Notes: generated by a model not told the origin, from the sequence alone. 46,066 bases of DNA from Parcubacteria group bacterium Gr01-1014_2 (GCA_007376425.1 VMGG01000001.1:1-46066); one strand, 5' to 3'. Shown: positions 3,256 to 45,284, counted from the first letter of the stretch. Numbers and translations: made by a program.

Positions 3256-3264
3256 TAATCGTTT

Positions 3265-5070: not shown

Positions 5071-5160
5071 ACTTATTTCTAACACGTGGAGTGGAAAAAA
5101 TAACAAAAAATTATTAAAAAAAATACCCACTCATATTGACTCTGGCATATATTTTATTCT

Positions 5161-8100
5161 TTGATAAAATTAATGAAAATGAAAATGTTCAGGACACTAA
5201 ATAATTCTTTAGGTTTTTTATGCTATAGATATGCTGTCAAGCCGACACTTGTCATCTTTTTACTTTTATTAACCCTGATTACTTTAGATACTTACATATC
5301 ATCAACCTCGCAATTAACTCTTGCCCAAGTCTCTTGGACTCCGCCCATCGGCATCCCTATTCCGTCATTTGGTATTGAAGAGACTATCAGCGATAGCGTC
5401 TATACTCACTGGATAGATAATTCTGGTACCTGTTCTGATTCAAGCAATGGTACGCCAGCTAATCCAAGATGCACTATCCCAATAACTTTAGCCGCCGGCT
5501 CAATTATTCAAATACGCGGTATCTCCTATACTCTTCCCGGCGCTAATCCAACATTTACCGGGAACGGCACAATCTCCCAACCCGTGTTCCTGCGAGGACC
5601 TAGCACCGGACAAAAACCCAAGCTCATCAATACCAGCGATTCTAAGTTCTTTAATGGCAGTTACTTCATCGTTGAGAATATTGATATTGACCGTGGCACT
5701 ACGACAGGCAATCACATAGTCATCCGTAACAGTGAGGTACATGATCATCCATATCGCAACGGCATCACCGTCGGCGGCCAAGACATCGTTATTTACAACA
5801 ACTCCATCCACCATACAGGCAATCAGGTTGTTCCTGATGATAGGCATGGCGTAACCGTAACTTCAAGTGCTCAACGAATCTGGATTGTCGACAATGAAAT
5901 CTATAAATCCTCTGGCGACGGCATCCAATTCTGCCATGCCTGTCCGGAGCCTGGCCCTCAATATGTATACATTGGAAGAAATAAAATCCACGACAATGTG
6001 GAAAATGCGGTGGACTTCAAGACGTCACAGCATGTGGTAGTGTCGCAGAACGAGATGTACGGCCACAGGCCAACTTCGGCAGGCACAACCAGTTCTGATG
6101 GAACGGCTGCGTTAATCGGCAGTAATGGTCTAGCCGATGCGGCGGTGGATATCTGGATTATCTTTAATGACATCTATAACAACGGGCCGGGTATTCGGGT
6201 TGAAGCCTCGGCGAATGCTGGCGGGACTGCCGGACCAGCTTATCTCATTGGCAATCTCATCCGTAATAGTTCCGCGGCCGCGTTTAAGTTCGAGAAATCC
6301 GGCAACCCCATCCATATCTACGGGAATACGGTTTACGATACTGATACAGCCATTAATGCGGACTGGCGAGATCAGTTTTCGTTCCGTATTTATAATAATA
6401 TCTTTGCCAATCTCCGGGGCCAGCAATTCGGGAATCACATTAATATTGAACCTTCGCCGATCGGCCAAAATTCTATCATGAGTCAAAATCTTTTCTGGCA
6501 AAACGGCGGCCCGGTAACCATTAACTGGGGCGGAACATCCTCTACTTATACCTCAACGGCCGGACTGGCAGGATTCTCCGGAGGCGCGAATAATATTATT
6601 TCAGATCCAAAGTTTAACAATCCGGGCATTGATTTCCATCTTCAGTCGAGTAGCCCGGCCATTGATTCTGCCAATTACGGTCTCTTCGACTATGCCGCAA
6701 CCTTCTGCCAAACATTCGGAGCTTTTATTTCTAATTGTCTGAACTCTGTCAAAATGGATTTTGAAAAGAATGTCCGTCCCCAAGGCGCAGGCTGGGATAG
6801 AGGCGCTTTTGAATTTGGTGGAACTCCAACCACCACTCTAACCCCTACACCTAGTCCCACTCCTAGTTCCACCCCAACACCTACCCCAACACCTACCCCA
6901 ACTCTCACTCCGACACCAACTCCTACTTCTATGCCGACACCCACTCCTACACCAACGCCTACACCGACTCCTACACCCACCCCAACCCCAACGCCACCAC
7001 CAACTTTTAATGTTGGTAATCGCATTCGTCTGCTCAACAACGCTAATGTCCGTACACAAGGCATTATATCTTCTGCCACCCTCCTCGGAACTCAACCTCA
7101 AGGAACATTAGGCACTATCGTTCTAGGTCCTACCCAATCTTCTGCTAATCCTTACATTTGGTGGCAGGTCGATTATGATAGTGGAGTAGATGGTTGGACC
7201 GCGGATGATAATTTTGCTTTAGTATCTCCCACTCCTACCCCTACTCCTTCACCAACACTTACTCCTTCACCAACTCCGACTCCGACTCCGACCCCAACCC
7301 CAACTTCAATTCCTACACCCACCCCAACCCCAACTTCAACACCAGCCCCGACACCGACACCAGACACGATTAAACCAAGCATCACCTCTTGGGATGTTCA
7401 ACCAAGAAGCGGAACTGGTTCTGTCACCATTTCCTGGACCGTTACAGACGCCGGAGGGTCTTTTATCAAAGAAATTGAGGTCAAGCGGGCTGTTTTTCAA
7501 GACAACGGATGCAACGACTCCGATAAATCAAAATGCATTTGGATCAACATCAGAACAATAAATGTCCAGCCGCCAACCTACTTTTATGGTCTCCACGCTA
7601 TCGATGGCGCAGGCAACATAGCCGTTGAACCAGCTCCAATAAAAGTTTTCGCAATCGGTTCTTCTCCAGCCCCTACCCCTACCCCAACACCAACTTCTAT
7701 TCCAACGCCAGCTCCCACTCCAACTCCAGCGCCACCTGGAGGTGGCGGCGGTGGCGGTGGTAGCGGTGGTGGTGGTGGCGGCACTTCATTCCCCACACCT
7801 CTATCTACTCCCATCCCAATCCCAATTCCCGCTCCTAGCTCTGGCGCCCTGCCTCTTAACTTCAATTCTCTTTCTCCAGCTGAAAAAATTACTACTCTTC
7901 AAAACATCATCAGCCAACTTACTACTCAAATCAATAAACTCTTAAGACAGACCGGGCAACTGCCCATCACTGGAAAATGTATCTTTACCAGAGATCTTTT
8001 CTTAAACAGTGCTGGAGAAGATGTCAGATGCTTACAGAAGTTCCTTAATGCTGGAGGATTTACCTTGGCTGTTTCAGGACCTGGTTCTCCCGGAAATGAA

Positions 8101-8229
8101 ACTACTTACTTTGGACCAATAACCAAACAGACAGTAATCAGGTGGCAAGCGGCCAATGGAGTGGCCCCGGCCTTAGGATACTTTGGGTTGAAGTCAAGGA
8201 CGAAATACCAAAACCTGATCGGAAATTAA
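5161..8229 (+). CDS. Right-handed beta-helix surface protein with PT linkers, SH3-like and Ig/FN3-like inserts and a C-terminal peptidoglycan-binding domain
   Basis: The track start is TTG at 5161, with ATG options at 5173, 5179 and 5185. There is an N-terminal TM. Repeated turns such as [40 protein letters not shown] and [10 protein letters not shown] resemble pectate-lyase-fold PbH1 repeats. The C-terminus [12 protein letters not shown]...[19 protein letters not shown] resembles PG_binding_1. Confidence 0.8.
6825..7785 (+). repeat. Three Pro-Thr linker tracts plus a poly-Gly tract inside the beta-helix protein
   Basis: PT tracts lie at about 6825-7002, 7225-7365 and 7660-7735. [16 protein letters not shown] tract lies at about 7736-7785 (ggtggcggcggtggcggtggtagc...). 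Confidence 0.9.
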
Positions 8230-21412: not shown

Positions 21413-21775
21413 CTACTGGAAGAAGACCCTGGTAACCACTCCGGCAAGGGTCTGAAGAATAAGCCCAACGGCTATGACCACCAACGCGCCCCAGACGCCG
21501 GACCAGATTTGGGTCTTGGCCGCCTTTATTTTAGTATCGTCGCCGCCAGCCCGCATCCAAGCAATACCTCCCCAAACTATGTAAATTAATGCGGCGACCA
21601 CGCCTATTATTAAGATGAATTGAGCTAGTCGCCTGACAATATTTTCAACTTCGGTCAGGGTTGTGCCCGGGACAACAGGCGGATTAACTGTCGGCAACTG
21701 GGCCAGAACCACCACCGGCAATAAAACCAGCATCGCTATCGCTGAAACAGCTGCGTATTTTTTAATTAAATTCAT
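21413..21775 (-). CDS. TrbC/VirB2-like (T4SS-type) pilin-like small membrane protein P5
   Basis: It has a signal peptide (AMLVLLPVVVLAQ) and then two TM helices flanking the loop AWMRAGGDDTKIKAAKTQIWSG. Confidence 0.6.
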   Translation of the reverse strand: MNLIKKYAAVSAIAMLVLLPVVVLAQLPTVNPPVVPGTTLTEVENIVRRLAQFILIIGVVAALIYIVWGGIAWMRAGGDDTKIKAAKTQIWSGVWGALVVIAVGLILQTLAGVVTRVFFQ

Positions 21776-21829: not shown

Positions 21830-22267
21830 CTAAGGTTTACAGGTTTTTTGTCCTAATCCAAACAATCCGGCTCGGCACTCCAAACCGAACTGGCAATTAG
21901 TATCCTGATTACACAAACTCCCGGGCCCGCCCAGGATCGGATTGCCGGGTATTCCAGAACCGCCAAAGAAACTTCCTGTCACCACTATATTATATATCGT
22001 CAGAATTATCACGCCAACCGCTAAAATTATAAATGCTCCGGTTATCCCGTTCCTGAACCAGCCCTTAGCGCTTTTGGCTTCGGTGTCAGACTTGGCCCAG
22101 AAATACATTATGCCGGAAATCACTATGGTAATAATGGCTAAGATTATTCCGGCGGCAATCAAAAAATTGGCAATGGAATTAAGAATATCTAATAAACCGC
22201 CTTGGGTTAAAGTCGGGCCGGGCGGCAATTGAGGCACGGTATAGTCTGGAACTAGAGCTAGATTCAT
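21830..22267 (-). CDS. Pilin-like small membrane protein P4 with a Cys-rich C-terminal tail
   Basis: It has two TM helices around the loop ISGIMYFWAKSDTEAKSAKGWFRNGI. The tail is CNQDTNCQFGLECRAGLFGLGQKTCKP (4 Cys). Confidence 0.6.
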   Translation of the reverse strand: MNLALVPDYTVPQLPPGPTLTQGGLLDILNSIANFLIAAGIILAIITIVISGIMYFWAKSDTEAKSAKGWFRNGITGAFIILAVGVIILTIYNIVVTGSFFGGSGIPGNPILGGPGSLCNQDTNCQFGLECRAGLFGLGQKTCKP

Positions 22268-22563
22268 TTAATTCTCTATTGGCCCGGGCCAATGCAAAAC
22301 CCCATGCTTTCGCCTTCCGGAATGAAACAAGTAAACCCGCTTGGACAGCTTTGGGGCCCGGTACAATTCTGAAACGACTCCTCGGTGGTCACGCTTGGTC
22401 TTGACCCGCCGAAAAATCCTCCTTCCACGATAATCTTAATTGTCTGAATTATCACGCCAGTGGCCAAAATTATGAACACTCCGATAATCCCGTTCCGAAG
22501 CCAGCCCTTGGCGCTTTTGGCTTCGGTGTCAGACTTGGCCCAGAAATACATTATGCCGGAAAT
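22058..22563 (-). repeat. 63-nt near-identical tract shared by P4 and P3
   Basis: 22058-22120 and 22501-22563 read ccagccctt[a/g]gcgcttttggcttcggtgtcagacttggcccagaaatacattatgccggaaat, with one mismatch, while the flanks are diverged. Confidence 0.85.
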
Positions 22564-22764
22564 AACCAAAGTAATCACTGCCAAAGTAATCCCGGCAGTG
22601 TAAAGAAACTTGGCCGTGCTATCCAAAAGATTAGTAAGCCTTTGATAAGTGACTGGCTCGCCCAGAGGCAACTGAAAAGTTGATTGAGGCTGCTGAACTA
22701 AAAAAGCAGTTAGTAAATTTTTGATTTTTGATTGGTGATTTTTGATTGTTTTTAAAATATACAT
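22276..22764 (-). CDS. Pilin-like small membrane protein P3 with a Cys-rich C-terminal tail
   Basis: It has the same core, ISGIMYFWAKSDTEAKSAKGWLRNGI. The tail is CTGPQSCPSGFTCFIPEGESMGFC (4 Cys). Confidence 0.6.
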   Translation of the reverse strand: MYILKTIKNHQSKIKNLLTAFLVQQPQSTFQLPLGEPVTYQRLTNLLDSTAKFLYTAGITLAVITLVISGIMYFWAKSDTEAKSAKGWLRNGIIGVFIILATGVIIQTIKIIVEGGFFGGSRPSVTTEESFQNCTGPQSCPSGFTCFIPEGESMGFCIGPGQ

Positions 22765-23431: not shown

Positions 23432-23485
23432 AATTATATAAGTTAAAATAAGTAATAACCACTTTAATTATCCACAAATGAAAAA

Positions 23486-23508
23486 GGGAGAACAAATTGC
23501 GTTCTCCC
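23486..23508 (-). terminator. Intrinsic terminator of GC-rich module gene D
   Basis: On the minus strand, GGGAGAAC-GCAATTT-GTTCTCCC is followed by TTTTT. Confidence 0.85.
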
Positions 23509-23534
23509 CTTGTCGAGTTCCCATAACTTCGCGG

Positions 23535-24305
23535 TCAGGGACTCTTGAGTTTGACCGTGGCCGGAATCCGCCATCCCGGCAGAGTTGAGTCTTCGGTTCC
23601 CTGAAGATCAATCTCAAACTCATCGAAAGAGCCTCGGCCGTCTGGCTGAACCAGGAACACCCGAATGTCCGGCCGGTTGACTGTAGCTGTTGCCTTTTGC
23701 GCGAGCACGGCTCGCTTGCCATCAACCTCCACCACAATGACCGAGGTCGTTTCATTTATGACTTTGAAGCGAACTCCGGCCAGCCGCGGCATTGGCTTGG
23801 CAACAGTTACTTCTGCCGGCTCGACAGCAGATTGGTCTGCAGTCGGCGGCTGCGGCCGTTCAGGAACCGTCTGTGGCTGGACTAACGGCTGTTGCGACGC
23901 CTGAACTGACTGATAAACTACAACTGGTTCATACCAGCACTCGCGTTCGTGTTGACCGTAAAGGCCAACACCGCCAGCACCGACTGCGGCACCGCCGACA
24001 ACCGCGCCCGCGTTGCGAGTCCAGATAGCGGCTGAACCACCACCTGCCAAGGCGCCCAAACCCATATCAGCGAACCGATGCCCGATAGACATCGGCCTGC
24101 ACACGAGTTGCTGACCGGGGTAACCGTAAGGCTGCCACTGGCCGGCCAGCGACCAAATCATGGCCTGATTGCCAGCCACGACCCGCGCCGCCTCGTTTCC
24201 GCCAAACGGCGAAAACCCTCCGAAACCGCCGAACCCCCACTGGGCAGAAGCCTCACCTCGCCCAAACAGAACTCCCAAAATTACAATGAAAAGAACTTTC
24301 TTCAT
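23535..24305 (-). CDS. GC-rich module gene D: secreted protein with a glycine-zipper-like segment, a Pro/Gln linker and a C-terminal beta-rich domain
   Basis: The SD GGGAGGTGAGGG precedes the ATG. The signal peptide is MKKVLFIVILGVLFGRGEASA. The Gly-rich stretch is GLGALAGGGSAAIW...GAVVGGAAVGAGGVG. No family is recognised for the C-terminal domain. Confidence 0.7.
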   Translation of the reverse strand: MKKVLFIVILGVLFGRGEASAQWGFGGFGGFSPFGGNEAARVVAGNQAMIWSLAGQWQPYGYPGQQLVCRPMSIGHRFADMGLGALAGGGSAAIWTRNAGAVVGGAAVGAGGVGLYGQHERECWYEPVVVYQSVQASQQPLVQPQTVPERPQPPTADQSAVEPAEVTVAKPMPRLAGVRFKVINETTSVIVVEVDGKRAVLAQKATATVNRPDIRVFLVQPDGRGSFDEFEIDLQGTEDSTLPGWRIPATVKLKSP

Positions 24306-24441
24306 CCCTCACCTCCCTAGAACGAGCGAATGCTCGTTCGGGCTATGGCCCGTGGGCTCGCCCATTAGGGCGATCAATTCACAAATCGAATTGATTTAGC
24401 CAATACCTCTATTCTACTAAATTATTTAAAACTTGTCAAAC

Positions 24442-24483
24442 CACCCTTGAATTATCTTACACGTGTAAGATAATTCAAGGGTG
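24442..24483. promoter_or_regulatory. Perfect 42-nt palindrome (21-nt arms, no spacer) carrying TTGAAT-N17-ATAATT on both strands
   Basis: cacccttgaattatcttacac|gtgtaagataattcaagggtg is its own reverse complement. Confidence 0.6.
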
Positions 24484-24702
24484 ATGGCGTTTGGACTGAA
24501 GTTGAAACGGATGAATAAAAACTTCAAACGTCCAAAAACCACTTTTGAAAACATAATTCTTAGTATGCTGCTGTGCCGCAAAAATCACTCAAAGGATATA
24601 GAATATTTTTTAAAAACCTCTCGCGGCTTTTTGCACCCAAACTTTCTCAAAAAACAGGCGGCGGAATTGGGGGTTGGGGCTCTACTGAAAAAGTTTTTAT
24701 AA
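24481..24702 (+). CDS. Possible small basic protein (73 aa) in the AT-rich spacer, opposite strand to the module
   Basis: The ORF starts inside the palindrome (GTG ATG), has no convincing SD, and its product is Lys/Arg-rich. It may be non-coding. Confidence 0.25.
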   Translation: MMAFGLKLKRMNKNFKRPKTTFENIILSMLLCRKNHSKDIEYFLKTSRGFLHPNFLKKQAAELGVGALLKKFL

Positions 24703-24712
24703 AAAATTAAAA

Positions 24713-24742
24713 GGCCGTTTCCATGTTTCCACGAAAACGGCC
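24713..24742 (-). terminator. Intrinsic terminator after GC-rich module gene C
   Basis: On the minus strand, GGCCGTTT-tcgtggaaacatgg-AAACGGCC is followed by TTTTAATTTTTT. Confidence 0.8.
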
Positions 24743-24769
24743 CTGAAAGAACGATCGCTAACTTTTCGG

Positions 24770-25594
24770 TTAGCCGGGCGGATAGGCTCTGACAATCACC
24801 TCCTGCCCTTTTGGTCCGGAAAACCTCCGAATCCCTCCTTTGATTCCGTACCACTTGGTGATTGGACCGACTGTCCCGTCATCATAGTAGACTTTGGCTT
24901 CAGGAGAACCTTCAAAGTAGTAGTTCCAGCCCGCTGGAACCATGCCTGGTCTAAGAAACTCTTCAGAAACTGTTTCATCTCCGAGGAGCTTGGCTCTGAC
25001 GATTTCTCTTCCCGGCTGCGGCTGAACCTGAACTCCGGGAATCTGAACCTGACTCACTGCCTGCACTGCTCGCCCTGGCATCTGCCGCACCCTCTCTCTT
25101 CCGCCGAAGAAAAAGATGACGGTAATCATGACGATGCCAAGAGTCAGCACTGCCGCAAATCGCGCCGCCCACCGGTTCTGCCACCCAAACATCCACCTAA
25201 GGGTTAGAAAGACACCAAGGGTGGATCCGAGAAGAATCAATACCCCGATCAACTCGGGATCATTCCACGCCGGAACGAACGTCAGGTAAAGCCCGATGAG
25301 CATTTCTCCAAAAACTACAAGGAGAAGCCACTTGTAGATGACACGGGCCCGCGATATCGCCGCAAGCGTCCCTGCTATCAATGGAAATATTAACAGCAGG
25401 ATAAAGAACGCGACGAGCGGCACCATTGCGACTGTCGCGGTCACCCAAGCCATACCAGCGTATGCGACTGCAAGTACCACGAACGGCCAGATCAGAATGG
25501 CAAGAAGCACCAACCTGATCGTCCAGCGGAGTGCCGGCGCCGCGATATTCCAGAGAGCGCGAATGACGCGCAACAACGCTTGAAAAGTAGCCAT
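24770..25594 (-). CDS. GC-rich module gene C: polytopic membrane protein (~6 TM) with a ~90-aa C-terminal soluble domain
   Basis: The SD GGAAAGGAGG precedes GTGATG. The ATG overlaps the stop of B (TGATG). There are hydrophobic helices throughout the first ~175 aa. The C-terminus reads WNYYFEGSPEAKVYYDDGTVGPITKWYGIKGG. Confidence 0.7.
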   Translation of the reverse strand: MATFQALLRVIRALWNIAAPALRWTIRLVLLAILIWPFVVLAVAYAGMAWVTATVAMVPLVAFFILLLIFPLIAGTLAAISRARVIYKWLLLVVFGEMLIGLYLTFVPAWNDPELIGVLILLGSTLGVFLTLRWMFGWQNRWAARFAAVLTLGIVMITVIFFFGGRERVRQMPGRAVQAVSQVQIPGVQVQPQPGREIVRAKLLGDETVSEEFLRPGMVPAGWNYYFEGSPEAKVYYDDGTVGPITKWYGIKGGIRRFSGPKGQEVIVRAYPPG

Positions 25595-26187
25595 CACCGC
25601 GCCTCCTTTCCTTCCAGCTGATCGGCAAGCCGATTGAGTTGTCGAGCCAACTGCTGGTCGGTTTTTCTTGATCCTCGAACCACGGCTCCGCCAGCCTTGG
25701 CAAACCCGATGAAAAGATTGTCGAACCGATCTTGCATCTTCTGCCAGTCGATCGAAACCTTCTCCGGCTTTGCTGGCTCCGCCGCTTTCCTGGCTTCCTC
25801 GATGACCTTAAGAAGTTCTCGCCGAAGCTCGAAATCCAGCTTGACCTTCTCGAGTTCGACTTTCGGATCAGCCGCCTTCTCAATTCGTTTGGCAGCTTCC
25901 GAATAAAATCTATCCATCCAGTCCTGAGCGGCCTTGACTCCTTTCGGTCCCATAACCGCAAAATCACCAACATCGGTCAGTTTCTCTACAACGTCGCCAA
26001 GAGGACCCATCCCTCTGGCTTTAGTTTCAGCCCAGCCCTTGAAAACGCCAAACACTCTCTCGAAGAATTCGCTCTTCAAAGGGCTGTCGTCGGGTATAAT
26101 CGCCCACCATTTCTGAGCAACTTTGCGAAGTTCCGGATCCAACACGCTAAGTAGCGTGTTGATATTAAATAATGCGGTCTTTGCCAT
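25594..26187 (-). CDS. GC-rich module gene B: predicted all-helical cytoplasmic protein
   Basis: The SD AAGGAGG lies 6 nt before the ATG. It overlaps gene A by 23 nt. The second half is rich in charged heptads. No family is recognised. Confidence 0.7.
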   Translation of the reverse strand: MAKTALFNINTLLSVLDPELRKVAQKWWAIIPDDSPLKSEFFERVFGVFKGWAETKARGMGPLGDVVEKLTDVGDFAVMGPKGVKAAQDWMDRFYSEAAKRIEKAADPKVELEKVKLDFELRRELLKVIEEARKAAEPAKPEKVSIDWQKMQDRFDNLFIGFAKAGGAVVRGSRKTDQQLARQLNRLADQLEGKEAR

Positions 26188-27217
26188 CTTGTCCTCCTTG
26201 CGACGAATCGCGTAATGACAAATCAGTCCGGAAAATTAGGGGTGTTCTGCGTTGAATCTTGAGTTCAGGAGACACCCAGGTTTTACCCTTGTCCCTTTCG
26301 ACAACATACGCTTCCCTCATCCTCTCCCAAAGCGAAGGCCTAATAATCCTGACTGGCTTTTCTTCTTTTGTAGGCTTCGGTTGTTCTCTCGCTGGCACGT
26401 CGACAACTGTCTTTTCCGCGTCCAAGTCATCTGGCAGAAAGAAAGTCACCCGCCTTGGGTACTCGAAGTAGGCGAGGCAAACGACGACGATTCCCCAGTT
26501 CTTTATCTGTGAAGGAAAATCGCCGGTGGCGTCACCGAAAACAATCCCTCCCTGTTCAAAGTCCAAGACAGAGATTCCTCCGTCTTCGGGCTTGCCGTCC
26601 TTCCCGATCCTTTGCAGAACAACCTCCAACCTGGAAAAACGCTTGTAGGTATGGAGGACTTTGATCTGGCGCGGCTTAGTGGGCTCGACTTGCTTTAACG
26701 ACTGCTTTGCCTCCTTGAGCTGCTTCTCCGCCTTGACCCGCTCGGTCTTAGCCTTGACGCTAGCAGTCTCCTTCTCATCGCGGGTCGGCTCCTTCTCTTG
26801 AACTATCAACTTTCTCTTTTCAGAAGCAACCCTTGCCCGTTCGAGTCCAGTCCGTTCGCGTCCAAGCGCTTCTTCTTCTGGCTTGGCTGGCTTCGGCAAC
26901 TCCGGCACAGTAATCATCTTCTGCACCGGCAGCCGATCGCCGATGTATACAACCACGAGGTAGTGATGGCCGGGCAAAAGCCCAACCAAAGGGGAAGTGC
27001 CAAAACCATTCTGGATTCTCGCCGGATATCCAGCTGGCGGCTCTTGCCCTTTTTCATAAACCGAAACTCCAACTTCCTTTGGCCTCCCTCCTTCCCACCA
27101 TCCGGTCAACTTAATCCGAAGGGTGGTTGAGTAGGTTTTGTCGGCGGCCAGCTCAAGCGAATCCCAAAAGAATTCGAGAACCGGCTCGCCGCCTTTCTTC
27201 TTCCGGTCTTCAGCCAT
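26165..27217 (-). CDS. GC-rich module gene A: two beta-rich domains joined by a Lys/Glu-rich coiled-coil-like linker
   Basis: The SD GAGGAGG lies 5 nt before the ATG. There is no signal peptide. The linker reads EKRKLIVQEKEPTRDEKETASVKAKTERVKAEKQLKEAKQSLKQ. No family is recognised. Confidence 0.7.
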   Translation of the reverse strand: MAEDRKKKGGEPVLEFFWDSLELAADKTYSTTLRIKLTGWWEGGRPKEVGVSVYEKGQEPPAGYPARIQNGFGTSPLVGLLPGHHYLVVVYIGDRLPVQKMITVPELPKPAKPEEEALGRERTGLERARVASEKRKLIVQEKEPTRDEKETASVKAKTERVKAEKQLKEAKQSLKQVEPTKPRQIKVLHTYKRFSRLEVVLQRIGKDGKPEDGGISVLDFEQGGIVFGDATGDFPSQIKNWGIVVVCLAYFEYPRRVTFFLPDDLDAEKTVVDVPAREQPKPTKEEKPVRIIRPSLWERMREAYVVERDKGKTWVSPELKIQRRTPLIFRTDLSLRDSSQGGQDGKDRII

Positions 27218-27307
27218 ACATCCTCCTCGTGGTTTGAAATTGAATTGTTAAAACTCCGATTTAAGCCAGAATTGGCCTAAACCGAAGCACTTTTTCTGAT
27301 AGCTTTC

Positions 27308-27336
27308 ACTATACATCACTAAATAGTATTTGTCAA
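27308..27336 (-). promoter_or_regulatory. Near-consensus sigma70-type promoter for genes A-B-C
   Basis: The minus strand reads TTGACA (27336-27331), a 17-nt spacer, then TATAGT (27313-27308), about 90 nt upstream of the gene A ATG. Confidence 0.6.
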
Positions 27337-27408
27337 AAGTGCAGTTTTAATATGCCATAGCATCTTAAAACGTAAATTGTATTTTAAAAACAAAAGATTA
27401 ACAAAAAA

Positions 27409-28924: not shown

Positions 28925-30745
28925 TCAGGGTATAAATCTCTGAATAATTTGTTTATCAACGGGACCGAATTGATTGTATGGAATATGGTTATCGCGCATT
29001 ATGTCATTCTCGGCATCCCGCTTCCAGCCCGTCTCCGGCCCTTGGTTATTACAGCCATTGAAACACGAAATTAAACCACCGGGACAAGAGCCAAGATTAC
29101 AATTATTCGGCTGTGGTTTTATTATAGGTTTCGGGTAAGGAAGATCATACCAGTATTCATCTGTAAGACCAGCAAAAGCATGGGCTAATTCATGCACTAA
29201 GGTTGTTACCAGCTTATCTCTGGTTATAGTAACTCTTTTTCTGGCAAAATTTGACCAACTCATAAAGGCATCATTTCCACCTAAGCATCTACCAATATAT
29301 ACTGAGACATTTGAAGAAGAACATGCATTAGAATTTATTGTGTCAGACCTCAATAATGAAAACTTAGAACTACTAAAAGGCGGAAACCGTGTGAGTGCTT
29401 CCTGATATTGATTTATAGTAGATACCCAGAAAGAATTCATATCGGAAGCAGTCCAATTTTCACTGCAGATATTGTCTTCTGCATCGTGTAAATTATTGCC
29501 GGCTATAAATACAACTCTAATCGGACCATTACCCGCCACGTTAATACATTGAGATGTTGTCGTTAACGGATACTGAGAACTTCTGGCAGTATAATTATTC
29601 GCTGTAGATACGGCTCGGACATTATAAGTATGCCCCTGCTGAAGATTATTTATAGTGAGCGAGTGATTGCTAACTAAACTATTATTTACGGGCGTTGTCG
29701 CTAGGCCGTAAGTTGCTGACACATATTCAGCCTGAGACGTTGATGGTATATTTGTCGTCCAAGTAATGGTGGCGCTGTTTGGAGTAATATTAGTTAAAGC
29801 AACATTTGAAATTACCATTGTAGCTCCACTGCCTCCGCCGCTACTTCCTCCGCCAGAAGACCCGTCGCCTGCATCTCCGGCGCAGGTCGTGGTGCTGATA
29901 TGGGTATGATCAGTTTCAAATTTAATAAAACCAAAATTGCATTCACTTCTGACGGCGCTTAGCCGATTGAATAATTCCTGTTCCGAGATGCCGACAGCAT
30001 TAAAATCAACTGCTTGAGCACCAGTTGTTCCGCCTGCTCCGCCGTAATGACAGGAATTAATTAAATGCGCGCAGGCCCCGCAAACTGGATTGCCTCGAGT
30101 GTAATTGCATAGAACATTTGAATTATCAGTTTCGTAAGTGTAAACCTGGCTTTGGTCTATAAAATTGTTTAGCTGGGAATTAACGCAGGAAATCAATTGA
30201 TTTAATTCTGGCGCATTGGTTGGACTCGACGGGACGCCGTATTGCGCCGCCAACGCTGACGGATTAGAACATAAAGCACTCGGCGGCGGACCGCCAGGAG
30301 TAATTACTTCGTCTTTGCAAGTAAATCTAAACCAGCTTCCTTTTGCTTTATCCGGACCGAATGACTGGATAAAAGTATTGACTATCATCCACGAAGCCAA
30401 AATTATCACCAAGCCCCAAAAAGTATTTTTAAAAATCGTAGTGCCCATCGCATAAAATTTTTGATTTGCTCCGGCAAGAACAATCATTAGCCCGGCAGCA
30501 ATGAATAAAACTGCAGCCACAGGCGGAACAATGCCCTCTAAAATAAAAAGGATAACATTATCGGCTAAACGAAAAAGGTCGCACCGGGTACACGGAGTAG
30601 GATTTGCAGAAGTTCCACAGGGCACTAACGGCCACCATGAAGGAGCGGCGAAAACGCTGTTAGAATGTAGTAAGTAGAAAGTAGTAAGTAGAAGTAAAAA
30701 GAGTAATAATTTTACGGCTGATTTTTTACGATTTTTTCGTTTCAT
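28925..30745 (-). CDS. Fusion protein: N-terminal pilin-like two-TM module + Cys-rich region + Gly/Ser linker + FN3-like domain + zincin (HExxH) metallopeptidase-like domain
   Basis: The pilin-like part is WPLVPCGTSANPTPCTRCDLFRL...VAAVLFIAAGLMIVLAGANQKFYAMG...GLVIILASWMIV. The linker is SSGGGSSGGGSG and the FN3-like part is ATITWTTNIPSTSQAEY. LVHELAHAFAGLTDEY resembles the M64-type HExxH..DEY motif as I recall it. Confidence 0.65.
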   Translation of the reverse strand: MKRKNRKKSAVKLLLFLLLLTTFYLLHSNSVFAAPSWWPLVPCGTSANPTPCTRCDLFRLADNVILFILEGIVPPVAAVLFIAAGLMIVLAGANQKFYAMGTTIFKNTFWGLVIILASWMIVNTFIQSFGPDKAKGSWFRFTCKDEVITPGGPPPSALCSNPSALAAQYGVPSSPTNAPELNQLISCVNSQLNNFIDQSQVYTYETDNSNVLCNYTRGNPVCGACAHLINSCHYGGAGGTTGAQAVDFNAVGISEQELFNRLSAVRSECNFGFIKFETDHTHISTTTCAGDAGDGSSGGGSSGGGSGATMVISNVALTNITPNSATITWTTNIPSTSQAEYVSATYGLATTPVNNSLVSNHSLTINNLQQGHTYNVRAVSTANNYTARSSQYPLTTTSQCINVAGNGPIRVVFIAGNNLHDAEDNICSENWTASDMNSFWVSTINQYQEALTRFPPFSSSKFSLLRSDTINSNACSSSNVSVYIGRCLGGNDAFMSWSNFARKRVTITRDKLVTTLVHELAHAFAGLTDEYWYDLPYPKPIIKPQPNNCNLGSCPGGLISCFNGCNNQGPETGWKRDAENDIMRDNHIPYNQFGPVDKQIIQRFIP

Positions 30746-32670: not shown

Positions 32671-35600
32671 TTATACTACAACCACTGAAGCCACTCCATC
32701 ACCAGAGTCCATCTTCATCACTCTCACCCCTTGGGTCGCTCGGCCCAGAACCGATATGCTTTTTAATTCAGTCCTGATAATTTGTCCTTTCTTGGAAATG
32801 ACAATGAGCTCTTTCTGCTCTGGATCAACAATTTGAGCGGAAACTATTTTCCCGGTTTTGGAAGTGACTTTGGCCGCCTTAACTCCTTTGCCGGCCCGCC
32901 TCTGGATTTTAAAAGCTTTAAGGTCAGTTCTTTTGCCATAACCGTTTTCCATTATTACCAAAAGCTGGTGTTTGGCTAAAGTCTGATCTGTAATTACTTC
33001 GGTCCCAATAACATAATCGTTTTTTGAAAGCTTGACTCCGGTGACGCCGGCTGCATTGCGCCCCATCCCCCGCACATCTTTTTCTTTAAAACGGATCGAA
33101 CTGCCTTCATTGGTAACCAAAAGTATCTCGTCGCTGCCCGAAGTAAGTCTGACCCAATTTAGAAAATCGCCCTCATAAAGCTTGATGGCAATCAGGCCGC
33201 TTCGCCTGATATTGACGAACTGATCAACTTCAACTTTTTTAACTACGCCGTCACGAGTGGCCATAAAAAGATATTTTGCTTCTTTCGCTTTGGCTTTCGG
33301 AACTCGAACCACGGCCGTGATTACTTCCTGCGAAGAAATATTCAAAAAATTAACTATTGATTTGCCGCGGCTCACCCTTGAAGATTCTGGCACCTCATAG
33401 CCCTTAGTTTGGAAAACTTTTCCGGAAGCGGTAAAAAATAATAAATTGTCATGGGTATTAGCCAAAAAGAAATGGCTGACAATGTCTTCTTCTTTTGTGG
33501 TCATTCCAATTAAGCCTTTGCCGCCGCGTTTTTGAATCCTCAATTCGGATGAGGACATCCGCTTAATGTAGCCCGAATGGGTCAAAACAAATAAAGCGTC
33601 TTCTTCCGGCACTAATTCTTCTTCGCCGATTTCTTTCAAAGCGCCTCTGACTATTTTGGTTTTTCTTGCATCCCCGTATTTTTGCTTGAGTTCTTCGAAT
33701 TCATCTTTCATTAATTTTAAAATTTTCTTGGGGCTGGCTAACAATTCTTCTAAGTAAACAACAAGCTGTTTTTTCTCCTTGAGTTCGTCTTCAATCTTTT
33801 TTCTTTCCAAACCAGCCAAAGCCTGCAATCGCATCTCCAAAATGGCGGTAGTCTGAAGTTCGGTGAATTTGAATTTTTTGATTAAGTTATTAAAAGCATC
33901 CTCGCGGCTTTCCGATTTTTTAATAGTGGCGATTATTTCGTCAATATGATCAAGGGCTTTTTTCAATCCTTCCAGAATATGGGCCCTGGCTTTGGTTTGA
34001 GCCAAATCAAATTTAGTCCGCCGAGTGATAACATTTTTTCGATGTTCAATAAACTTTTCAAGAATGGTTTTTAAAGAAAGGGTCTGGGGCTGGATGCCGT
34101 CAAGCAAGGCCACCATATTGAAGTGATAAGTTTTTTGGAGATCAGTGTATTTAAAAAGCTGATTCAAAACTTTCCGGGGGGAAGAATCCTGTTTCAGTTC
34201 AATTACAATTCTCAAGCCTTCCCGATCAGACTCGTCGCGCAAATCCCTTATGCCTTCGATTTTTTTGTCTTTGACTAAATCGGCAATCTTAATAATCAAT
34301 TCGGCTTTATTAACTTGATAAGGGATTTCAGTAACGATAATCCGATAAGTCTCTTTCCCCTCGACCTGAGCTCGGGACGAAGGTTTATTCTCTTCGATAT
34401 CAACCTTGGCCCGGCTGACCACCGGACCGCGGCCCGTAGCATAAGCATTTAACAAATCTTCTCGGTTATAAATTATCCCGCCGGTCGGGAAATCAGGGCC
34501 TTGGATAAAATTTACTAATTCTTTATTGTCGGCTTCGGGATTATCAATCAAATGAACTAAACCATCTAAAACTTCGGTAATATTATGAGGCGGGATATTA
34601 GTCGCCATTCCCACGGCAATTCCGAAAGAGCCGTTTAATAAAAGGCTTGGAACGCGTGACGGCAAAACTACTGGTTCTTTTCTCGTGGCATCGTAGTTAT
34701 CGACAAAATCGACGGTCTCTTTTTCAATATCAATCAAGAGCTCTTCAGCGACCGAGGTCATCCTTGCCTCCGAATAACGCATCGCAGCAGCAGAATCTCC
34801 ATCAATCGAGTTATGAACAAAAATTCCTGAAGCCAGAGCAAAGTTATGAGTTTTATCAACTGTTAAATCATAAACATCTCGTTTCTCTTCTAAAAATCTA
34901 ACTTCTAGAACTTTGTGATTATACTTCTGGGCCTGGCTGACAATTTCTTTGAAATCTGAAAAATATCTCAAAACATTATTTATATTTGGGGTCCCGTTAT
35001 TAGCTCTGTTTTTTTCATAAGTCTCTGGGGTTAGTTCATAACCCTGATCTAATAAATTTTTAGCATGCCTCAAAATCTTTGATTTTATCACCTGTTCCTT
35101 GTACCCGGCTTTTTGCCATTTTTTTCTCAGAGACACGGCTGCTTTTTTTGCCAGTCTTTTCATAAAGTCGGGTTGCTCTTTCAATCGTTGCAGATTTCTT
35201 TCTTTTGTCGCTTGGGATATTTTTTTTCTGAATTCCGGGATTTCCCACTGCTTTCTGGCTTTTTCAGAATGAATCTTCTTCATCTCTGGATTGCTCCATA
35301 AAACTTTCGCCATCCGGCTAAAATGGTTTTGGGGGTATTTCGCTCTATACTGAGGGTCTCGCCATAACTTTTTTGCAAATTTTGTTTGCCTTTTTCTATA
35401 CTCTGGATTTTCCCATTGTTTTTTAGATGACTCACTTATATACTCGCGATGCTCGGGATTGGCCCATAACTTCAAAGACCATTCTCTAGTCAAGTCGGTC
35501 ATTTTTTTTCTATAATTTTCATCTTGCCACTTTATCTTCAGCTCCTTTGATTTCAATTTACTCATGAGCTTCTGATAATCTGCTCGTTGCCATGTCTTTT

Positions 35601-36705
35601 TCAATGTTTCACTCGAAACTTTTCTCATAAATTCTTTATACTCCGGATCTGACCATAGTTTTTGTATTATTTTGTGGTGTTTTTTTCTAAACTCCTTGCT
35701 TTTCCAAAGTTTTTCGTTTAATTTTCTTGCTCTTTCGACAAATAAATGCCGGTTTTCATTTATGTACTTTTCTCTTCCTTCGGCCAGTTTTTTAACATAT
35801 TCAGGGTCATTCTTATGCCTTTCTGCAGACATTTGATAATGTAAAACCCAATGATCTTTCCACTGCATTCTTTTAATGTTATCGGGATTATTGTTTAATT
35901 TATTGAAATCCAAGTGGTGGCGAACTTTCCCGTCGCTTTTCTTATAGACTCCGTTTTCAACGTTAAATTTGTCGGCTAATCGATGAGTCCAATCCCAAAT
36001 ATTTTTAAACGGCTGCCAAATCATTCTGTATCCGACGGCATTTTTGTCGTCTTCCTTAGTTGATAGTCTAAAGTAAACCGGCATTAACGAATCACCATTT
36101 TTAAGATTTTGGGCCTCTTTGTAGCTACCGTCTCGCAACGTAAAACGGTGGCTTGGAGTGCATTTTATTTTTTCGCCGTTGTCCAAAATGACTTCAACCA
36201 GTTTTGCATCTTTTTTTGTCAATCTTGGATTTTTAATTTCTGCAATTTCTATAGATTTCGTCTGATGATTAAACGTATAAGTATGATTTTTCTTTCCACT
36301 TTTATATTCTTTAACTAAATCAATAAAAGATAGTTCTCTTCCATCGGTTAATGAAATCTTTGTATCTCCCGTAAAACAGCCCCAGTTGCCTTGACCGTCA
36401 ATCAATGGATAGCGCAACGAAAAATCTTGGGCCATCCGGACCATAGCTTCATACACCGGTGCGTCTCCATGAGGATGGTATTTCCCTAAAATTTCACCCA
36501 CTACACGAGCCGATTTTACAAACTTAACATTGTGCCTCAAGCCCATTTCGTTCATCGCGTAAAGAATTCTCCTCTGAACCGGCTTGAGTCCGTCTCGGAC
36601 ATCGGGCAGAGCGCGCGAAATAATTACGCTCATCGCGTAATCCAAATACGACTCCCTCATCTCTTGGGTTATTTCTCGTTGTTTTATTTTTCCGATTTCA
36701 GACAA
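32671..36705 (-). CDS. gyrA: DNA gyrase subunit A precursor containing one intein
   Basis: It has a TTG start. [44 protein letters not shown] and the C-terminal beta-pinwheel repeats match GyrA. The extein is 821 aa once 523 aa are removed. Confidence 0.95.
34365..34391 (-). repeat. GC-rich near-palindromic insert, in-frame in gyrA (encodes PSSRAQVEG)
   Basis: The coding strand reads ccttcgtcccgagctcaggtcgagggg. The arms ccttcg../..cgaggg pair with 2 mismatches. It lies in a loop before the conserved TEIPYQVNK. Confidence 0.5.
34810..36378 (-). mobile_element. Intein (523 aa, Cys110..Asn632) with an HNH nuclease domain and a basic helical repeat array
   Basis: The junctions are GQGNWG|[10 protein letters not shown] ... 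GIFVHN|SIDGD, and block B is TPSHRF. The HNH motif is [29 protein letters not shown]. There are about 11 units of W-x-x-[PA]-[ED]-[YF]-[RK] spaced 17-22 aa apart. Confidence 0.9.
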
Positions 36706-40506: not shown

Positions 40507-40511
40507 AGACT

Positions 40512-40584
40512 GGGGATGTAGCTCAATTGGTAGAGCAGTCGCCTTATACGCGAAAGCGTGGAGGTTCGAGCCCTCCCATCCCCA
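40512..40584 (+). tRNA. tRNA with anticodon UAU (Ile, AUA-reading)
   Basis: It reads GGGGATG TA GCTC AATTGGTA GAGC A GTCGC CTTATAC GCGAA AGCGT GGAGG TTCGAGC CCTCC CATCCCC A. Confidence 0.8.
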
Positions 40585-40586
40585 TT

Positions 40587-43411: not shown

Positions 43412-43482
43412 GCCCGTGTAGCTTAGTGGCAAAGCAACGGTTTCGTAAACCGTGGACGGAGGTCCGATTCCTCCCATGGGCT
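43412..43482 (+). tRNA. tRNA-Thr (anticodon CGU)
   Basis: It reads GCCCGTG TA GCTT AGTGGCA AAGC A ACGGT TTCGTAA ACCGT GGAC GGAGG TCCGATT CCTCC CATGGGC T. Confidence 0.85.
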
Positions 43483-43497
43483 TTTAACAAAATATAA

Positions 43498-43568
43498 GCC
43501 GCGGTAACTTAATGGAAAAGTAGGTGCCTGAAGAGCATCAAAAGGCAGTTCGATTCTGCCCCGCGGCA
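43498..43568 (+). tRNA. tRNA-Phe (anticodon GAA)
   Basis: It reads GCCGCGG TA ACTT AATGGAAA AGTA G GTGCC TGAAGAG CATCA AAAG GCAGT..., with the anticodon loop CTGAAGA in the alternative register, T arm GGCAG TTCGATT CTGCC and acceptor CCGCGGC A. Confidence 0.8.
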
Positions 43569-43570
43569 TT

Positions 43571-43645
43571 GCGGGCGTCGTATAGTGGTTATTATGGGAT
43601 CTTGCCAAGATCCAGACGGCAGTTCGATTCTGCTCGCCCGCTCCA
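43571..43645 (+). tRNA. tRNA-Gly (anticodon GCC), CCA encoded
   Basis: The acceptor is GCGGGCG ... CGCCCGC T CCA, the anticodon arm is GGATC TTGCCAA GATCC and the T arm is GGCAG TTCGATT CTGCT. Confidence 0.9.
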
Positions 43646-43739
43646 CAATTAGAGATTCCGATTTTTGACCGACGAATCGGTGGGCGGCACGAAGTGCCGC
43701 CCATTGGTTTTGTGGGGGGAAATCCTCTCCGTTCGGCGC
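43641..43739. repeat. Left inverted repeat (IR-L), starting in the last 5 nt of tRNA-Gly and carrying a 20-nt insertion
   Basis: IR-L reads ctccacaattagagattccg [atttttgaccgacgaatcgg] tgggcggcacgaagtgccgcccattggttttgtggggggaaatcctctccgttcggcgc. Without the bracketed part it equals the reverse complement of 45285-45363. Confidence 0.9.
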
Positions 43740-45082
43740 TCAAGAGAAGAAGCGACTTTTATCCATTCTCTCATCGGTTCGAGCCAACCATTCTGCTTTT
43801 GTTCAAGGTTAGTCATTTGCTCTTCCAGCGACTTCTTTTCGCTCAATAACTTTGCTTTTTCTCCACGATATACTTCGCGGTCAATATCCTGCTCCAAATA
43901 GCCATCAAGAAGTCGCTGGAGCTTGGTGGCAATGACCTTGATTCTCTCTTGGCTTGTTTGAACAAAAGCAGAAACGGATTGGGCGGATTTTGATTTGTCT
44001 TTTTCCAATCTTGTGTTTAGTTTTTCCGCCCAATCCGTGGGCAAAGAAACTTTTTGAAGCAGAGAGGAGATTTGCTCGTCTAGCTTTTCTTGGCGAATAC
44101 AGGGTTCGGAACACTTCATCACTTTAGATTTTTTCGTGCAATGATAGTAAGTATAAAAATGTTGTGTGCCGTTTTTCTGGGTTTTCACCCTGTATTCGCC
44201 AGTTATCATCATTCCGCAAGTGCCGCAACGCAATAATCCGCAAAATACTTGCGGCTCTATTTTAGATTTATGTCGCGGCCTTCCTCTCTGCTTCAATACC
44301 TCTTGGACTTTATCAAAAAGTTTCTTTGAAATGATTGGCTCGTGCTTACCCTCGTATATTTCGCCTGCATAGCGAAATAGTCCAGTGTAGAAAGGGTTGG
44401 AGAGGATAAAAGTCGCTCTTGAGATGTGGATTCTCTTTCCGCTTCTTGAAACTAAATGGTGTTGCGCCAAAAATTCTCCAATATCTTCTAGCCGTTGATC
44501 GCCTTGCGCGTAGAGTTCAAAAGCCTTGCGAACAACCGGAGCTTGCTTTTTGTCCACGACAATAGATTTATTGCGCGAGTCGTTGATATATCCAACAGGC
44601 GCAAGAGATGGATACTCTCCTCGTCTCACTTTTTGGCGCAATCCTCTTTTGGTATTTTCGGAAAGAGAATCCACATAGTATTTGCTTTGCCCAAAAGCGA
44701 TGTTCAACATAAATTTTCCCTGCGGCGTTGGCTCAAACCAAAACTGCACAAATTTCAACGCTGCAAGTCCACCTGTATCTACAAGGTAAATTATTTTTCC
44801 ACCATCAACAGAATTGCGCGCTAATCTATCAGGATGCCAGGTCAAAATTCCGTTAGCTTCGCCACTCTCTATCCGATTAAGCATATCGTTGAAAATAGGA
44901 CGGCCCGGAATTTTGGCCGATTGCTTCTCTACTAACTCATCAACAATGTTGAGATTTTCTTGTTTGGCGTAGGCGCGCAATTCTGCGATCTGGTCCTCGA
45001 TGGAACGCACTTGTTTATCTTCCACATCGGTGGACTTGCGGGCATACAAAAAGAATTTTTGCGATGAGATAATTTTTTCCAT
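43649..45082 (-). CDS. Large serine recombinase (resolvase domain + recombinase domain + zinc ribbon + coiled coil)
   Basis: FFLYARKSTDVEDKQVRSIEDQ carries the catalytic Ser motif. GILTWHPDRLARN and CGLLRCGTCGMM...YYHCTKK...KCSEPC are also present. The start is taken at MEKIIS (45082); the track ORF extends to 45280 through IR-R-adjacent sequence. The last ~29 codons are encoded by IR-L. Confidence 0.85.
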   Translation of the reverse strand: MEKIISSQKFFLYARKSTDVEDKQVRSIEDQIAELRAYAKQENLNIVDELVEKQSAKIPGRPIFNDMLNRIESGEANGILTWHPDRLARNSVDGGKIIYLVDTGGLAALKFVQFWFEPTPQGKFMLNIAFGQSKYYVDSLSENTKRGLRQKVRRGEYPSLAPVGYINDSRNKSIVVDKKQAPVVRKAFELYAQGDQRLEDIGEFLAQHHLVSRSGKRIHISRATFILSNPFYTGLFRYAGEIYEGKHEPIISKKLFDKVQEVLKQRGRPRHKSKIEPQVFCGLLRCGTCGMMITGEYRVKTQKNGTQHFYTYYHCTKKSKVMKCSEPCIRQEKLDEQISSLLQKVSLPTDWAEKLNTRLEKDKSKSAQSVSAFVQTSQERIKVIATKLQRLLDGYLEQDIDREVYRGEKAKLLSEKKSLEEQMTNLEQKQNGWLEPMREWIKVASSLERRTERISPHKTNGRHFVPPTDSSVKNRNL

Positions 45083-45284
45083 AATGTTGAAAACTTTAAA
45101 GGCCGCCCCGGTTGTAACCAATCCAAGTTGCCTTGAACTGACCGAGACGGCCATCAAAAAAGACAACTTTGCGGGATTGGTTACATAGTCATTATAGCAA
45201 AAATTCTTTTTGTTGGGCAAATGCGAATACAAACCGCAAGGGATTTCGAACCTCGTCTTGGCCAACCGCGAGGCGCGCATCAGC

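Follow-up and report, generated by a model that had tools for sequence, protein, structure and literature searches.

The 46,066-nucleotide stretch of Parcubacteria group bacterium Gr01-1014_2 analysed here (GCA_007376425.1, VMGG01000001.1:1-46066; hereafter the window) raises the question of what four genes with a foreign-looking base composition, here called A, B, C, and D, are doing in the middle of a pilin-like gene cluster, and whether they came there recently. In the original prediction, drawn from this DNA, they were described as a self-contained unit that could not be assigned to a known family and that looked like acquired cargo wired to local AT-rich regulatory signals. Our analysis shows instead that the module is a resident cassette, recent acquisition being excluded, and that its slot is hypervariable, with mosaic exchange of genes and domains, a property which the prediction had overlooked and which is the more interesting one. 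The flanking genes encode VirB2/TrbC-type pilins of type IV secretion systems (T4SS) in a seven-gene tandem array (PF18895), and we tentatively read the module as an envelope accessory system of this array in a Parcubacteria clade of ultra-small groundwater bacteria, a role that we consider possible rather than probable.

The module and its place in related genomes

The module and its signals comprise the following features, with coordinates counted from the first letter of the window.

26165-27217, minus strand: gene A, 350 amino acids, open reading frame (ORF) confirmed
25594-26187, minus strand: gene B, 197 amino acids, ORF confirmed
24770-25594, minus strand: gene C from its ATG, 274 amino acids; a GTG start upstream would make 275
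23535-24305, minus strand: gene D, 256 amino acids, ORF confirmed
27336 to 27308, minus strand: promoter of the A-B-C operon, TTGACA-17-TATAGT, 11/12 match in the promoter scan
27243-27290, minus strand: 5' leader element of A, a 16-bp hairpin (27288-27253) followed by UUUUAACAAUU, from alignment and folding
24744-24711, minus strand: intrinsic terminator after C, -23.8 kcal/mol, z -4.6
24481-24702, plus strand: relic of an AbiEii/DUF6036-like gene in the C-D spacer, 73-codon ORF, from tblastn
24442-24483, strand not applicable: perfect 42-nucleotide palindrome abutting the D promoter
24439 to 24411, minus strand: promoter of D, TTGACA-17-TAGAAT, 11/12 match in the promoter scan
24320-24396, minus strand: structured leader of D, with hairpins at 24396-24373, 24372-24359, and 24339-24320, -41.9 kcal/mol, z -3.9
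23511-23483, minus strand: intrinsic terminator after D, -18.4 kcal/mol, z -3.5

Here, A and B overlap by 23 nucleotides and B and C by TGATG, and Shine-Dalgarno (SD) sites precede all four starts (GAGGAGG, AAGGAGG, AAGGAGG, and GGGAGGTGA). The ORFs, coordinates, overlaps, and SD sites of the original prediction were all verified, as were both promoters and both terminators, and the view of a coherent four-gene module with signals of its own is thereby supported. What did not stand is the single unit, as the module is made up of two transcription units, A-B-C and D.

Comparison with related genomes gave seven syntenic loci, these being the window, L005 (GCA_001825525), L006 (GCA_964361065), L008 (JGI 3300021357), L011 (Hainich), L019, and L020, the last of which is from the window's own ENA assembly (ERZ27284378). 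In L005, L006, L008, and L011, the genes follow a common order of gyrA, methyltransferase, SBP_bac_1, pilin(s), A, B, C, (opposite-strand gene), D, five pilins, HSP20, PrsW, and tRNA synthetase, and variant cassettes are found in L019 and L020. The module slot is occupied in five further distinct Parcubacteria genomes (L005, L006, L008, L011, and L019), and the flank proteins there share 66-92% identity with those of the window. In L020 (3234-5633), a Band_7/SPFH protein takes the place of A and B, followed by a short C with the same C-terminal domain and then by a D homolog. In two more distant loci, L018 and L022, genes resembling A, B, and C adjoin a pilin array, SBP, and gyrA in a rearranged order. 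Co-occurrence of the four genes, on which the original prediction depended, is thus borne out, and in readable Parcubacteria loci they always stand next to pilin-like genes, a constant adjacency that fits a functional link to the array.

The regulatory DNA is conserved along with the gene order. Both hexamers (-35 and -10) of the A promoter align with promoter-like sites of L005, L006, L011, L019, and L020, and across the seven aligned loci the D promoter has an invariant -35 hexamer and a conserved -10 hexamer, with promoter-like sites at this level of match numbering 11 in the region versus 3.7 ± 1.9 in shuffles. Between the A promoter and SD site lies the A-leader element, whose hairpin (-23.2 kcal/mol, z -2.85) shows compensatory changes in 9 of the 15 predicted pairs over six loci and is followed by UUUUAACAAUU, near-invariant over six loci. 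An Rfam scan of 23.3-27.5 kb at E ≤ 1, which took in this leader, returned no match, and the element looks like a candidate attenuator (leader terminator) or a stabilizing 5' hairpin. Both terminators fold much more stably than shuffled sequence. Moreover, the terminator hairpin after C is also present in L005 and L020, and the first and last hairpins of the D leader are shared with L008, the first apparently with compensatory changes between the window and L008 in an alignment judged by eye.

In the C-D spacer, the relic resembles the AbiEii-like gene of L006 (36% over 74 amino acids, E 9e-8 by tblastn), and in L006, L008, and L019 the C-D interval holds an intact, opposite-strand, AT-rich AbiEii/DUF6036-like gene. 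The relic ends at the 42-nucleotide palindrome, which is present in the window alone among the compared loci.

The view of the module as recently inserted cargo is not supported. The same slot is filled in five relatives, the promoters and A leader are conserved, and the module borders have no direct repeats, tRNA, or integrase, with the nearest recombinase being ~16 kb away. Of what marks a recent island, we found the atypical composition (z = 2.2-2.7 for GC at third codon positions, GC3), with no hallmark at the borders and with no syntenic relative lacking the module at this site, and so a recent island was rejected.

Mosaic diversity and base composition of the slot

Across the seven syntenic genomes, identity of the flank proteins SBP, PrsW, and HSP20 is 66-94%. 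The module proteins differ much more, at 38-60% for A (that of L019 can be aligned in short pieces at most) and 28-47% for C in pairs that align over most of their length. The B position of related loci is taken by at least four forms with no BLASTP alignment between them, and D takes two, a long form and a short lipoprotein form, the latter being found in L006 and L008 and keeping only the glycine-zipper core. Nonsynonymous divergence (dN) of the module is 0.21-0.78 in 9 of the 10 window-versus-relative comparisons, against 0.04-0.24 in the flanks. The tenth, D versus L005, gave a dN of 0.10 and a synonymous divergence (dS) of 0.46, with the L005 flanks at a dS of 0.83-1.25. Overall, flank dS is 0.8-1.25 versus L005 and L020 and 1.6 to >3 (saturated) versus L006, L008, and L019.

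The relationships of these genes are incongruent with those of the flanks. The window B is 73% identical to that of L006, though the L006 flanks are among the more distant, and L005, with flanks close to those of the window, has an unrelated B. In DNA, B is 78% identical to L006 as compared with 71-72% for the flanks, and its dS (1.07) lies below that of the L006 flanks. DNA homology between the window and L005 ends near 26386 and resumes at 24316, at the D start. Exchange also reaches within genes, as the A allele P0017 has an N-domain 87% identical to that of the window joined directly to an unrelated C-terminal domain, and other A alleles combine a different N-domain with a window-type C-domain. 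A diversity-generating retroelement target was considered and rejected, as no reverse transcriptase was found among the scanned window ORFs and no template/variable-type repeat pair in 20.5-31 kb.

Diversity of this kind would also suit a conflict or exclusion cassette (defence, surface-exclusion, or toxin-immunity), lodged in a recombination hotspot and not acting with the pilins. Extreme allelic diversity, non-homologous replacement, and domain shuffling are all seen in the slot, which also gathers unrelated AT-rich genes (AbiEii/DUF6036-like, PaaX/Cas2-like, helix-turn-helix, and IS200). In L024 (9267-17532), a B-C-like pair, with a TonB_C domain on its C, adjoins Fic and TraI_middle/LPD7 genes, and this setting suggests a mobile-element context outside loci of the type seen in the Candidate Phyla Radiation (CPR). 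Moreover, D faintly matches the TraT surface-exclusion lipoprotein (E = 1.8), though the match is not significant and falls in the low-complexity zipper. Searches of PADLOC and PHROGs gave nothing significant, however, and the window proteins have no enzymatic or toxin domain; conserved promoters, a conserved leader, and constant placement are, in addition, unusual for shuffling defence islands. All told, we rate such a cassette as rather unlikely. A known anti-phage defence system was rejected separately, the best PADLOC match being coiled-coil noise (LmuB, E 0.005, 13 bits).

The second trait that sets the module apart is its composition. Its genes have a GC content of 0.52-0.59 and a GC3 of 0.56-0.60, versus a mean GC3 of 0.39 (sd 0.075) for the 34 other window genes. 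Lysine is encoded by AAG at a frequency of 0.69 in the module and 0.22 elsewhere, and glutamate by GAG at 0.47 and 0.24, and both the GC shift first seen in hand counts and the AAG/GAG preference are verified. Amino-acid usage is shifted as well, with Ala, Arg, Gly, Pro, Val, and Trp raised and Asn, Ile, and Ser lowered. The intergenic stretches, on the other hand, are AT-rich (GC 0.30 upstream, 0.41 between C and D, and 0.34 downstream), as are the opposite-strand genes found between C and D (GC 0.35-0.37).

This excess had been taken as a sign of fresh import, but it is present in every orthologous locus, and the module is GC-richer than its neighbors in every locus that we examined. In genomes of 40-44% GC, module GC3 is 0.50-0.70 as compared with ~0.27-0.50 for the neighbors (a few at 0.52-0.58), and it reaches 0.66-0.78 in L018 (45% GC) and 0.63-0.80 in L022 (52% GC). 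In the variant cassette of L020, the excess is weaker. The excess lies mainly at two-fold sites, with G at AAR/GAR/CAR codons at 0.53-0.62 versus 0.22-0.40 and C at two-fold Y-ending codons at 0.49-0.83 versus 0.29-0.46, and at four-fold sites there is little difference between module and host within the close clade. The module looks uniformly ~55% GC whatever the site class, and host genes show a class-specific bias.

Several of these genomes have diverged from one another to saturation at the synonymous sites of the flanks, so the GC excess must be maintained, replenished, or a remnant. Selection or biased conversion could maintain it, repeated exchange of cassettes with a pool of higher GC could replenish it, or it could be left over from an ancient import that was very GC-rich. 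That a higher-GC gene pool exists is apparent from L024, a 55% GC genome in which the B-C-like pair has genome-typical GC. Simple biased gene conversion fits poorly, as the excess is found mainly at two-fold sites and ends at the gene borders. Codon adaptation to high expression was judged unlikely, given that the L20 and IF3 genes of the window have ordinary GC3 values (0.44 and 0.33), and is also disfavored by an AAG/GAG/CAG shift that differs from the usual pattern.

Composition is likewise what speaks for a foreign island, brought in by horizontal transfer either recently or once in the clade ancestor and still ameliorating. Such an origin would account for the uniform GC content across codon site classes, for amino-acid usage shifted toward GC-rich codons, and for relatives in higher-GC genomes such as L022 and L024. 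Yet a recent event is excluded by the synteny in five further genomes and the conserved regulatory DNA, the borders have no att-like repeats, tRNA, or integrase, and no phage or plasmid relatives were found in IMG/VR with A, C, and D profiles or in INPHARED and PLSDB with the DNA and the C protein. A single ancient import, for its part, must account for a GC3 of 0.50-0.70 despite saturated flank dS. Accordingly, we consider a foreign island, of either age, unlikely.

The four proteins and a possible role at the envelope

Assignment of A to D to a known family failed, as it had in the original prediction. Searches of the four proteins and the spacer ORF against Pfam, PHROGs, NCBIfam, and PADLOC gave noise and nothing significant, and no PDB sequence was matched below E 0.02 by profiles of any of the four. 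Nor did the four have a PF18895 or TrbC-VirB2 match in Pfam. The structure search proposed with the original prediction was run for A and C, and nothing specific was found.

The AlphaFold model of A (pLDDT 68.6) has two immunoglobulin (Ig)-like beta sandwiches, a helical hairpin linker at approximately residues 113-176, and a basic tail, and the protein has no signal peptide. In Foldseek searches of PDB and BFVD, only generic Fab, fn3, or Ig matches were obtained (TM ~0.2). Besides the query, A has 27 homologs, and all those with a source name are labelled Parcubacteria or Patescibacteria. Locus scans with a profile from 14 sequences found two loci in GTDB and six in JGI, and these few loci mark A as a small family.

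B is apparently all-helical and soluble, judging by inspection of its sequence. The B forms of the window, L005, L008, L011, L018, and L024 end in an FA(N/D)WL(D/E)-like motif just before the C start, and this may be a docking motif. As the hhalign comparison of two B alignments covered the C-terminal motif only (probability 17.5%), we do not claim homology of the B forms. At the B position in L019 stands a membrane protein that is unrelated to the window B.

For C, hydropathy and charge suggest about five transmembrane (TM) helices with the N-terminus inside, and together with the AlphaFold model (pLDDT 64.1) they replace the count of ~6 given in the original prediction. In this model, helices extend over residues 2-181, followed by a small C-terminal beta domain (~195-274, pLDDT ~85). 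No Foldseek match for C fell below E 0.05, with weak cupin-like matches being the best. By exhaustive profile search, the C family comprises at least 342 clusters at 50% identity (168 at E ≤ 1e-10), with named members from Azambacteria, Komeilibacteria, and Parcubacteria, and those that can be named or placed are mostly CPR. What follows the TM domain at the C-terminus varies widely among members, and in long relatives it includes SLT (3 of 41) and TonB_C (1 of 41), both of them extracytoplasmic domains. The C-position proteins of L019 (4640-8064) and L021 (626-1951) carry an SLT lytic transglycosylase domain, whereas no SLT domain (PF01464) was found by Pfam in the window C. The B-C pair also recurs in Komeilibacteria without pilins.

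D has a Sec signal peptide, a conserved GNEAARVVAGNQ segment, a glycine zipper, a Pro/Gln linker, and a highly conserved C-terminal beta domain. Of the zipper families checked in Pfam (PF13488, PF13441, and PF05433), only below-threshold matches were obtained, with two of the 11 D relatives matching PF13441 (best E 0.18) and one matching PF13488 (E 0.34), and a GxxxG-rich core is evident by eye.

From these features we can sketch how an envelope accessory system of the pilin array might work. One conserved promoter, followed by a structured leader, would drive A, B, and C, and the second would drive D. In the membrane, C could form a platform of ~5 TM helices, with an exchangeable domain at its C-terminus turned toward the cell wall or exterior, the same outward position that in some relatives would be held by a lytic transglycosylase or TonB_C. 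B would be the cytoplasmic partner of C, the B-C pair forming a conserved core that is found outside pilin arrays too, and A might act as a cytoplasmic double Ig-like adaptor or cargo. D, as a Sec-exported glycine-zipper protein, would work on the outer face. At the envelope or where cells make contact, A to D may together aid the pilin array or modulate its action. The cassette would diversify by high amino-acid substitution as well as by whole-gene and domain exchange between lineages, and its GC-rich codon usage would be a trait of the cassette gene pool that is maintained or repeatedly replenished.

Several points weigh against this reading. None of the A-D proteins has a detectable relative of known function, so that we infer the role from position, topology, and rare domain fusions alone. 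The B-C pair occurs without pilins in L023 and L024, meaning that the link to the array may be positional and not functional, and the AbiEii-like, PaaX/Cas2-like, and IS200 insertions nearby fit a generic variable hotspot equally well. An Arg-rich segment after the last TM helix of C argues for a cytoplasmic C-terminus, leaving its topology ambiguous. Finally, a Pfam scan of the large ORFs in the 46-kb window found no VirB4, VirD4, or VirB6.

A bolder proposal can be made. Here, A-B-C-D would be an undescribed envelope system, mostly of CPR, working with VirB2-like pilin arrays, with B-C as its core and with A and D as lineage-specific parts. The choice of partner or host by these episymbiotic bacteria would depend on outer domains that can be exchanged, and alleles would circulate between lineages as cassettes from a GC-rich pool, their composition kept by recurrent exchange or selection and not by ancestry. 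We put this forward as a doubtful hypothesis.

Very improbable, by comparison, is a holin and muramidase cassette for export or lysis (type 10 secretion-like), in which a holin-like C would release the signal-less A. Extracellular-type Ig folds in a protein that has no signal peptide would be explained by it, as would the SLT domain fused to some C relatives, and 3 of 60 C relatives have weak holin-family matches (best E 0.0086). Those matches are sub-threshold and sporadic, however, SLT is carried by only 3 of the 41 long relatives, the window C has no hydrolase domain, and no spanin or endolysin is found nearby.

Lastly, an assembly chimera of two organisms' DNA, which the sharp GC steps at 23.5 and 27.2 kb and the breaks of the Logan assembly in the C-D spacer and just after D might bring to mind, and which had been named as what would undo the original prediction, is refuted for practical purposes by a Logan contig of run SRR8863434 repeating pilin-A-B-C at 100% identity (it may be the same sample as the ENA assembly), by single BLASTN high-scoring segment pairs that cross both module junctions in L005, L011, and L019, and by the same order and GC pattern in five further genomes from different sites. 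With the whole region also on one contig of ENA assembly ERZ27284378, the assembly across the module is sound.

The pilin array, its surroundings, and known systems

Returning to the favored reading of an accessory system for the pilins, the array itself is laid out as follows, in order of coordinate, with the bit scores referring to PF18895.

21413-21775, minus strand: VirB2-like pilin, first of five in tandem downstream of the module, 32.3 bits
21830-22267, minus strand: VirB2-like pilin, second of the five, 29.3 bits
22276-22764, minus strand: VirB2-like pilin, third of the five, 30.4 bits
22752-23096, minus strand: VirB2-like pilin, fourth of the five, 27.9 bits
23081-23431, minus strand: VirB2-like pilin, fifth of the five, 41 bits
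27409-28107, minus strand: pilin with an fn3-like domain, upstream part of the array, 29.5 bits
28176-28880, minus strand: 234-amino-acid protein, function unassigned, upstream part of the array
28925-30745, minus strand: 606-amino-acid fn3/M64-like protein with a pilin-like segment below the cut-off, 24.0 bits

Six of the pilin genes score above the Pfam cut-off of 26.6 bits, and the seventh (28925-30745) lies below it. The pilin-like paralogs originally noticed on both sides of the module are therefore confirmed as pilins, their identity being VirB2/TrbC-like T4SS and not type IV pilins. Two adjacent paralogs share a 221-nucleotide direct repeat with 76% identity (21968-22188 and 22411-22631), which points to tandem duplication inside the array.

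The window is a typical segment of a small Parcubacteria-type genome, with genes for ArgRS, HtrA, IF3/L35/L20, TsaD, a class I tRNA synthetase, PrsW, HSP20, GyrA, FtsH, SOD, and tmRNA. The large ORFs that were scanned encode housekeeping, surface, or recombinase proteins, except for a 1069-amino-acid ORF (46-3255) without any Pfam match. This is one of three large plus-strand genes at 46-8229, the others encoding a 601-amino-acid LamG/DUF2341 protein and a 1022-amino-acid protein with beta-helix and PG_binding_1 domains. In the 1069- and 1022-amino-acid genes, GC is moderately raised at codon position 2 (GC2 0.51 and 0.53) and not at position 3, unlike in the module. GyrA (32671-36705, minus strand; 1344 amino acids) contains an intein (PF14890), and its orthologs are an 811-amino-acid protein without intein in L005 and one in L019 whose intein has a LAGLIDADG domain. 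At 43412-45280, a large serine recombinase (543 amino acids; Resolvase, Recombinase, and Zn ribbon) directly adjoins a tRNA-Thr/Phe/Gly cluster, and an integrated element may have its border here, ~16 kb away from the module. A tRNA-Ile with the anticodon TAT, which is uncommon in bacteria, was identified by ARAGORN at 40511-40585 (plus strand).

As the membership tests against known families failed, we can place the module in no established class. Its novelty lies in being unassigned and not in a demonstrated new mechanism, and with CPR genomes so often containing hypothetical genes, this is less surprising than it might be. The unusual part is that four traits come together, namely a fixed place in a VirB2 array, dedicated conserved regulation, extreme mosaic diversity, and persistent foreign-looking codon usage. 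Patescibacteria probably depend on contact with host cells, and we know of no assembly or specificity factors for their VirB2-like arrays. As a conserved, separately regulated, and fast-diversifying four-gene unit, the cassette is a concrete candidate for either role. C, moreover, defines a new membrane-protein family, and foreign-looking codon usage held at a fixed site with saturated synonymous sites offers a case in which amelioration, biased gene conversion, selection, and recurrent import can be set against one another. Should the module prove a generic passenger of a variable region, the finding would be of modest interest.

Among known systems, the nearest are the VirB2-like arrays of Patescibacteria (PF18895/PF04956; PMC12102498), with which the window shares seven tandem PF18895-type genes. 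Arrays broken by non-pilin genes are already described there, and such arrays are reported as essential in the single species tested, while the parts of that paper available to us do not describe the A-B-C-D module, its hypervariability, or its GC anomaly. A complete T4SS locus was rejected for the window, there being no VirB4 match among its scanned ORFs. As with VirB6, C is a polytopic membrane protein encoded next to VirB2-like genes; as with VirB1, some C relatives have SLT, which the window C does not; and as with VirB7, the short D forms are small, fast-evolving lipoproteins. Against VirB6, VirB1, and CONJScan-type families, neither the window proteins nor 60 C relatives gave a Pfam match, and the likeness is positional and architectural only. 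In particular, C as VirB6/TrbL was rejected, with no PF04610 or related match at E ≤ 1 in C and the 60 relatives and no PDB sequence match.

The pairs formed by SPFH and NfeD proteins are a second point of comparison, as the Band_7 protein of L020 lies directly upstream of a short C and C, in its outline of TM helices with a small C-terminal beta domain, is similar to short NfeD proteins. Unlike SPFH proteins, A consists of two Ig-like sandwiches, and C as NfeD was rejected, with no PF01957 match in C and its 60 relatives and no OB-fold or NfeD by Foldseek. A third likeness is to O-antigen and capsule clusters, which are fixed-site hypervariable loci, usually lower in GC than the genome, and encode sugar-pathway enzymes. 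The module resembles these in its conserved flanks, constant position, non-homologous alleles, mosaic exchange, and persistent atypical composition, and it differs from them in encoding small structural or membrane proteins of unassigned fold families and in being GC-richer than the genome.

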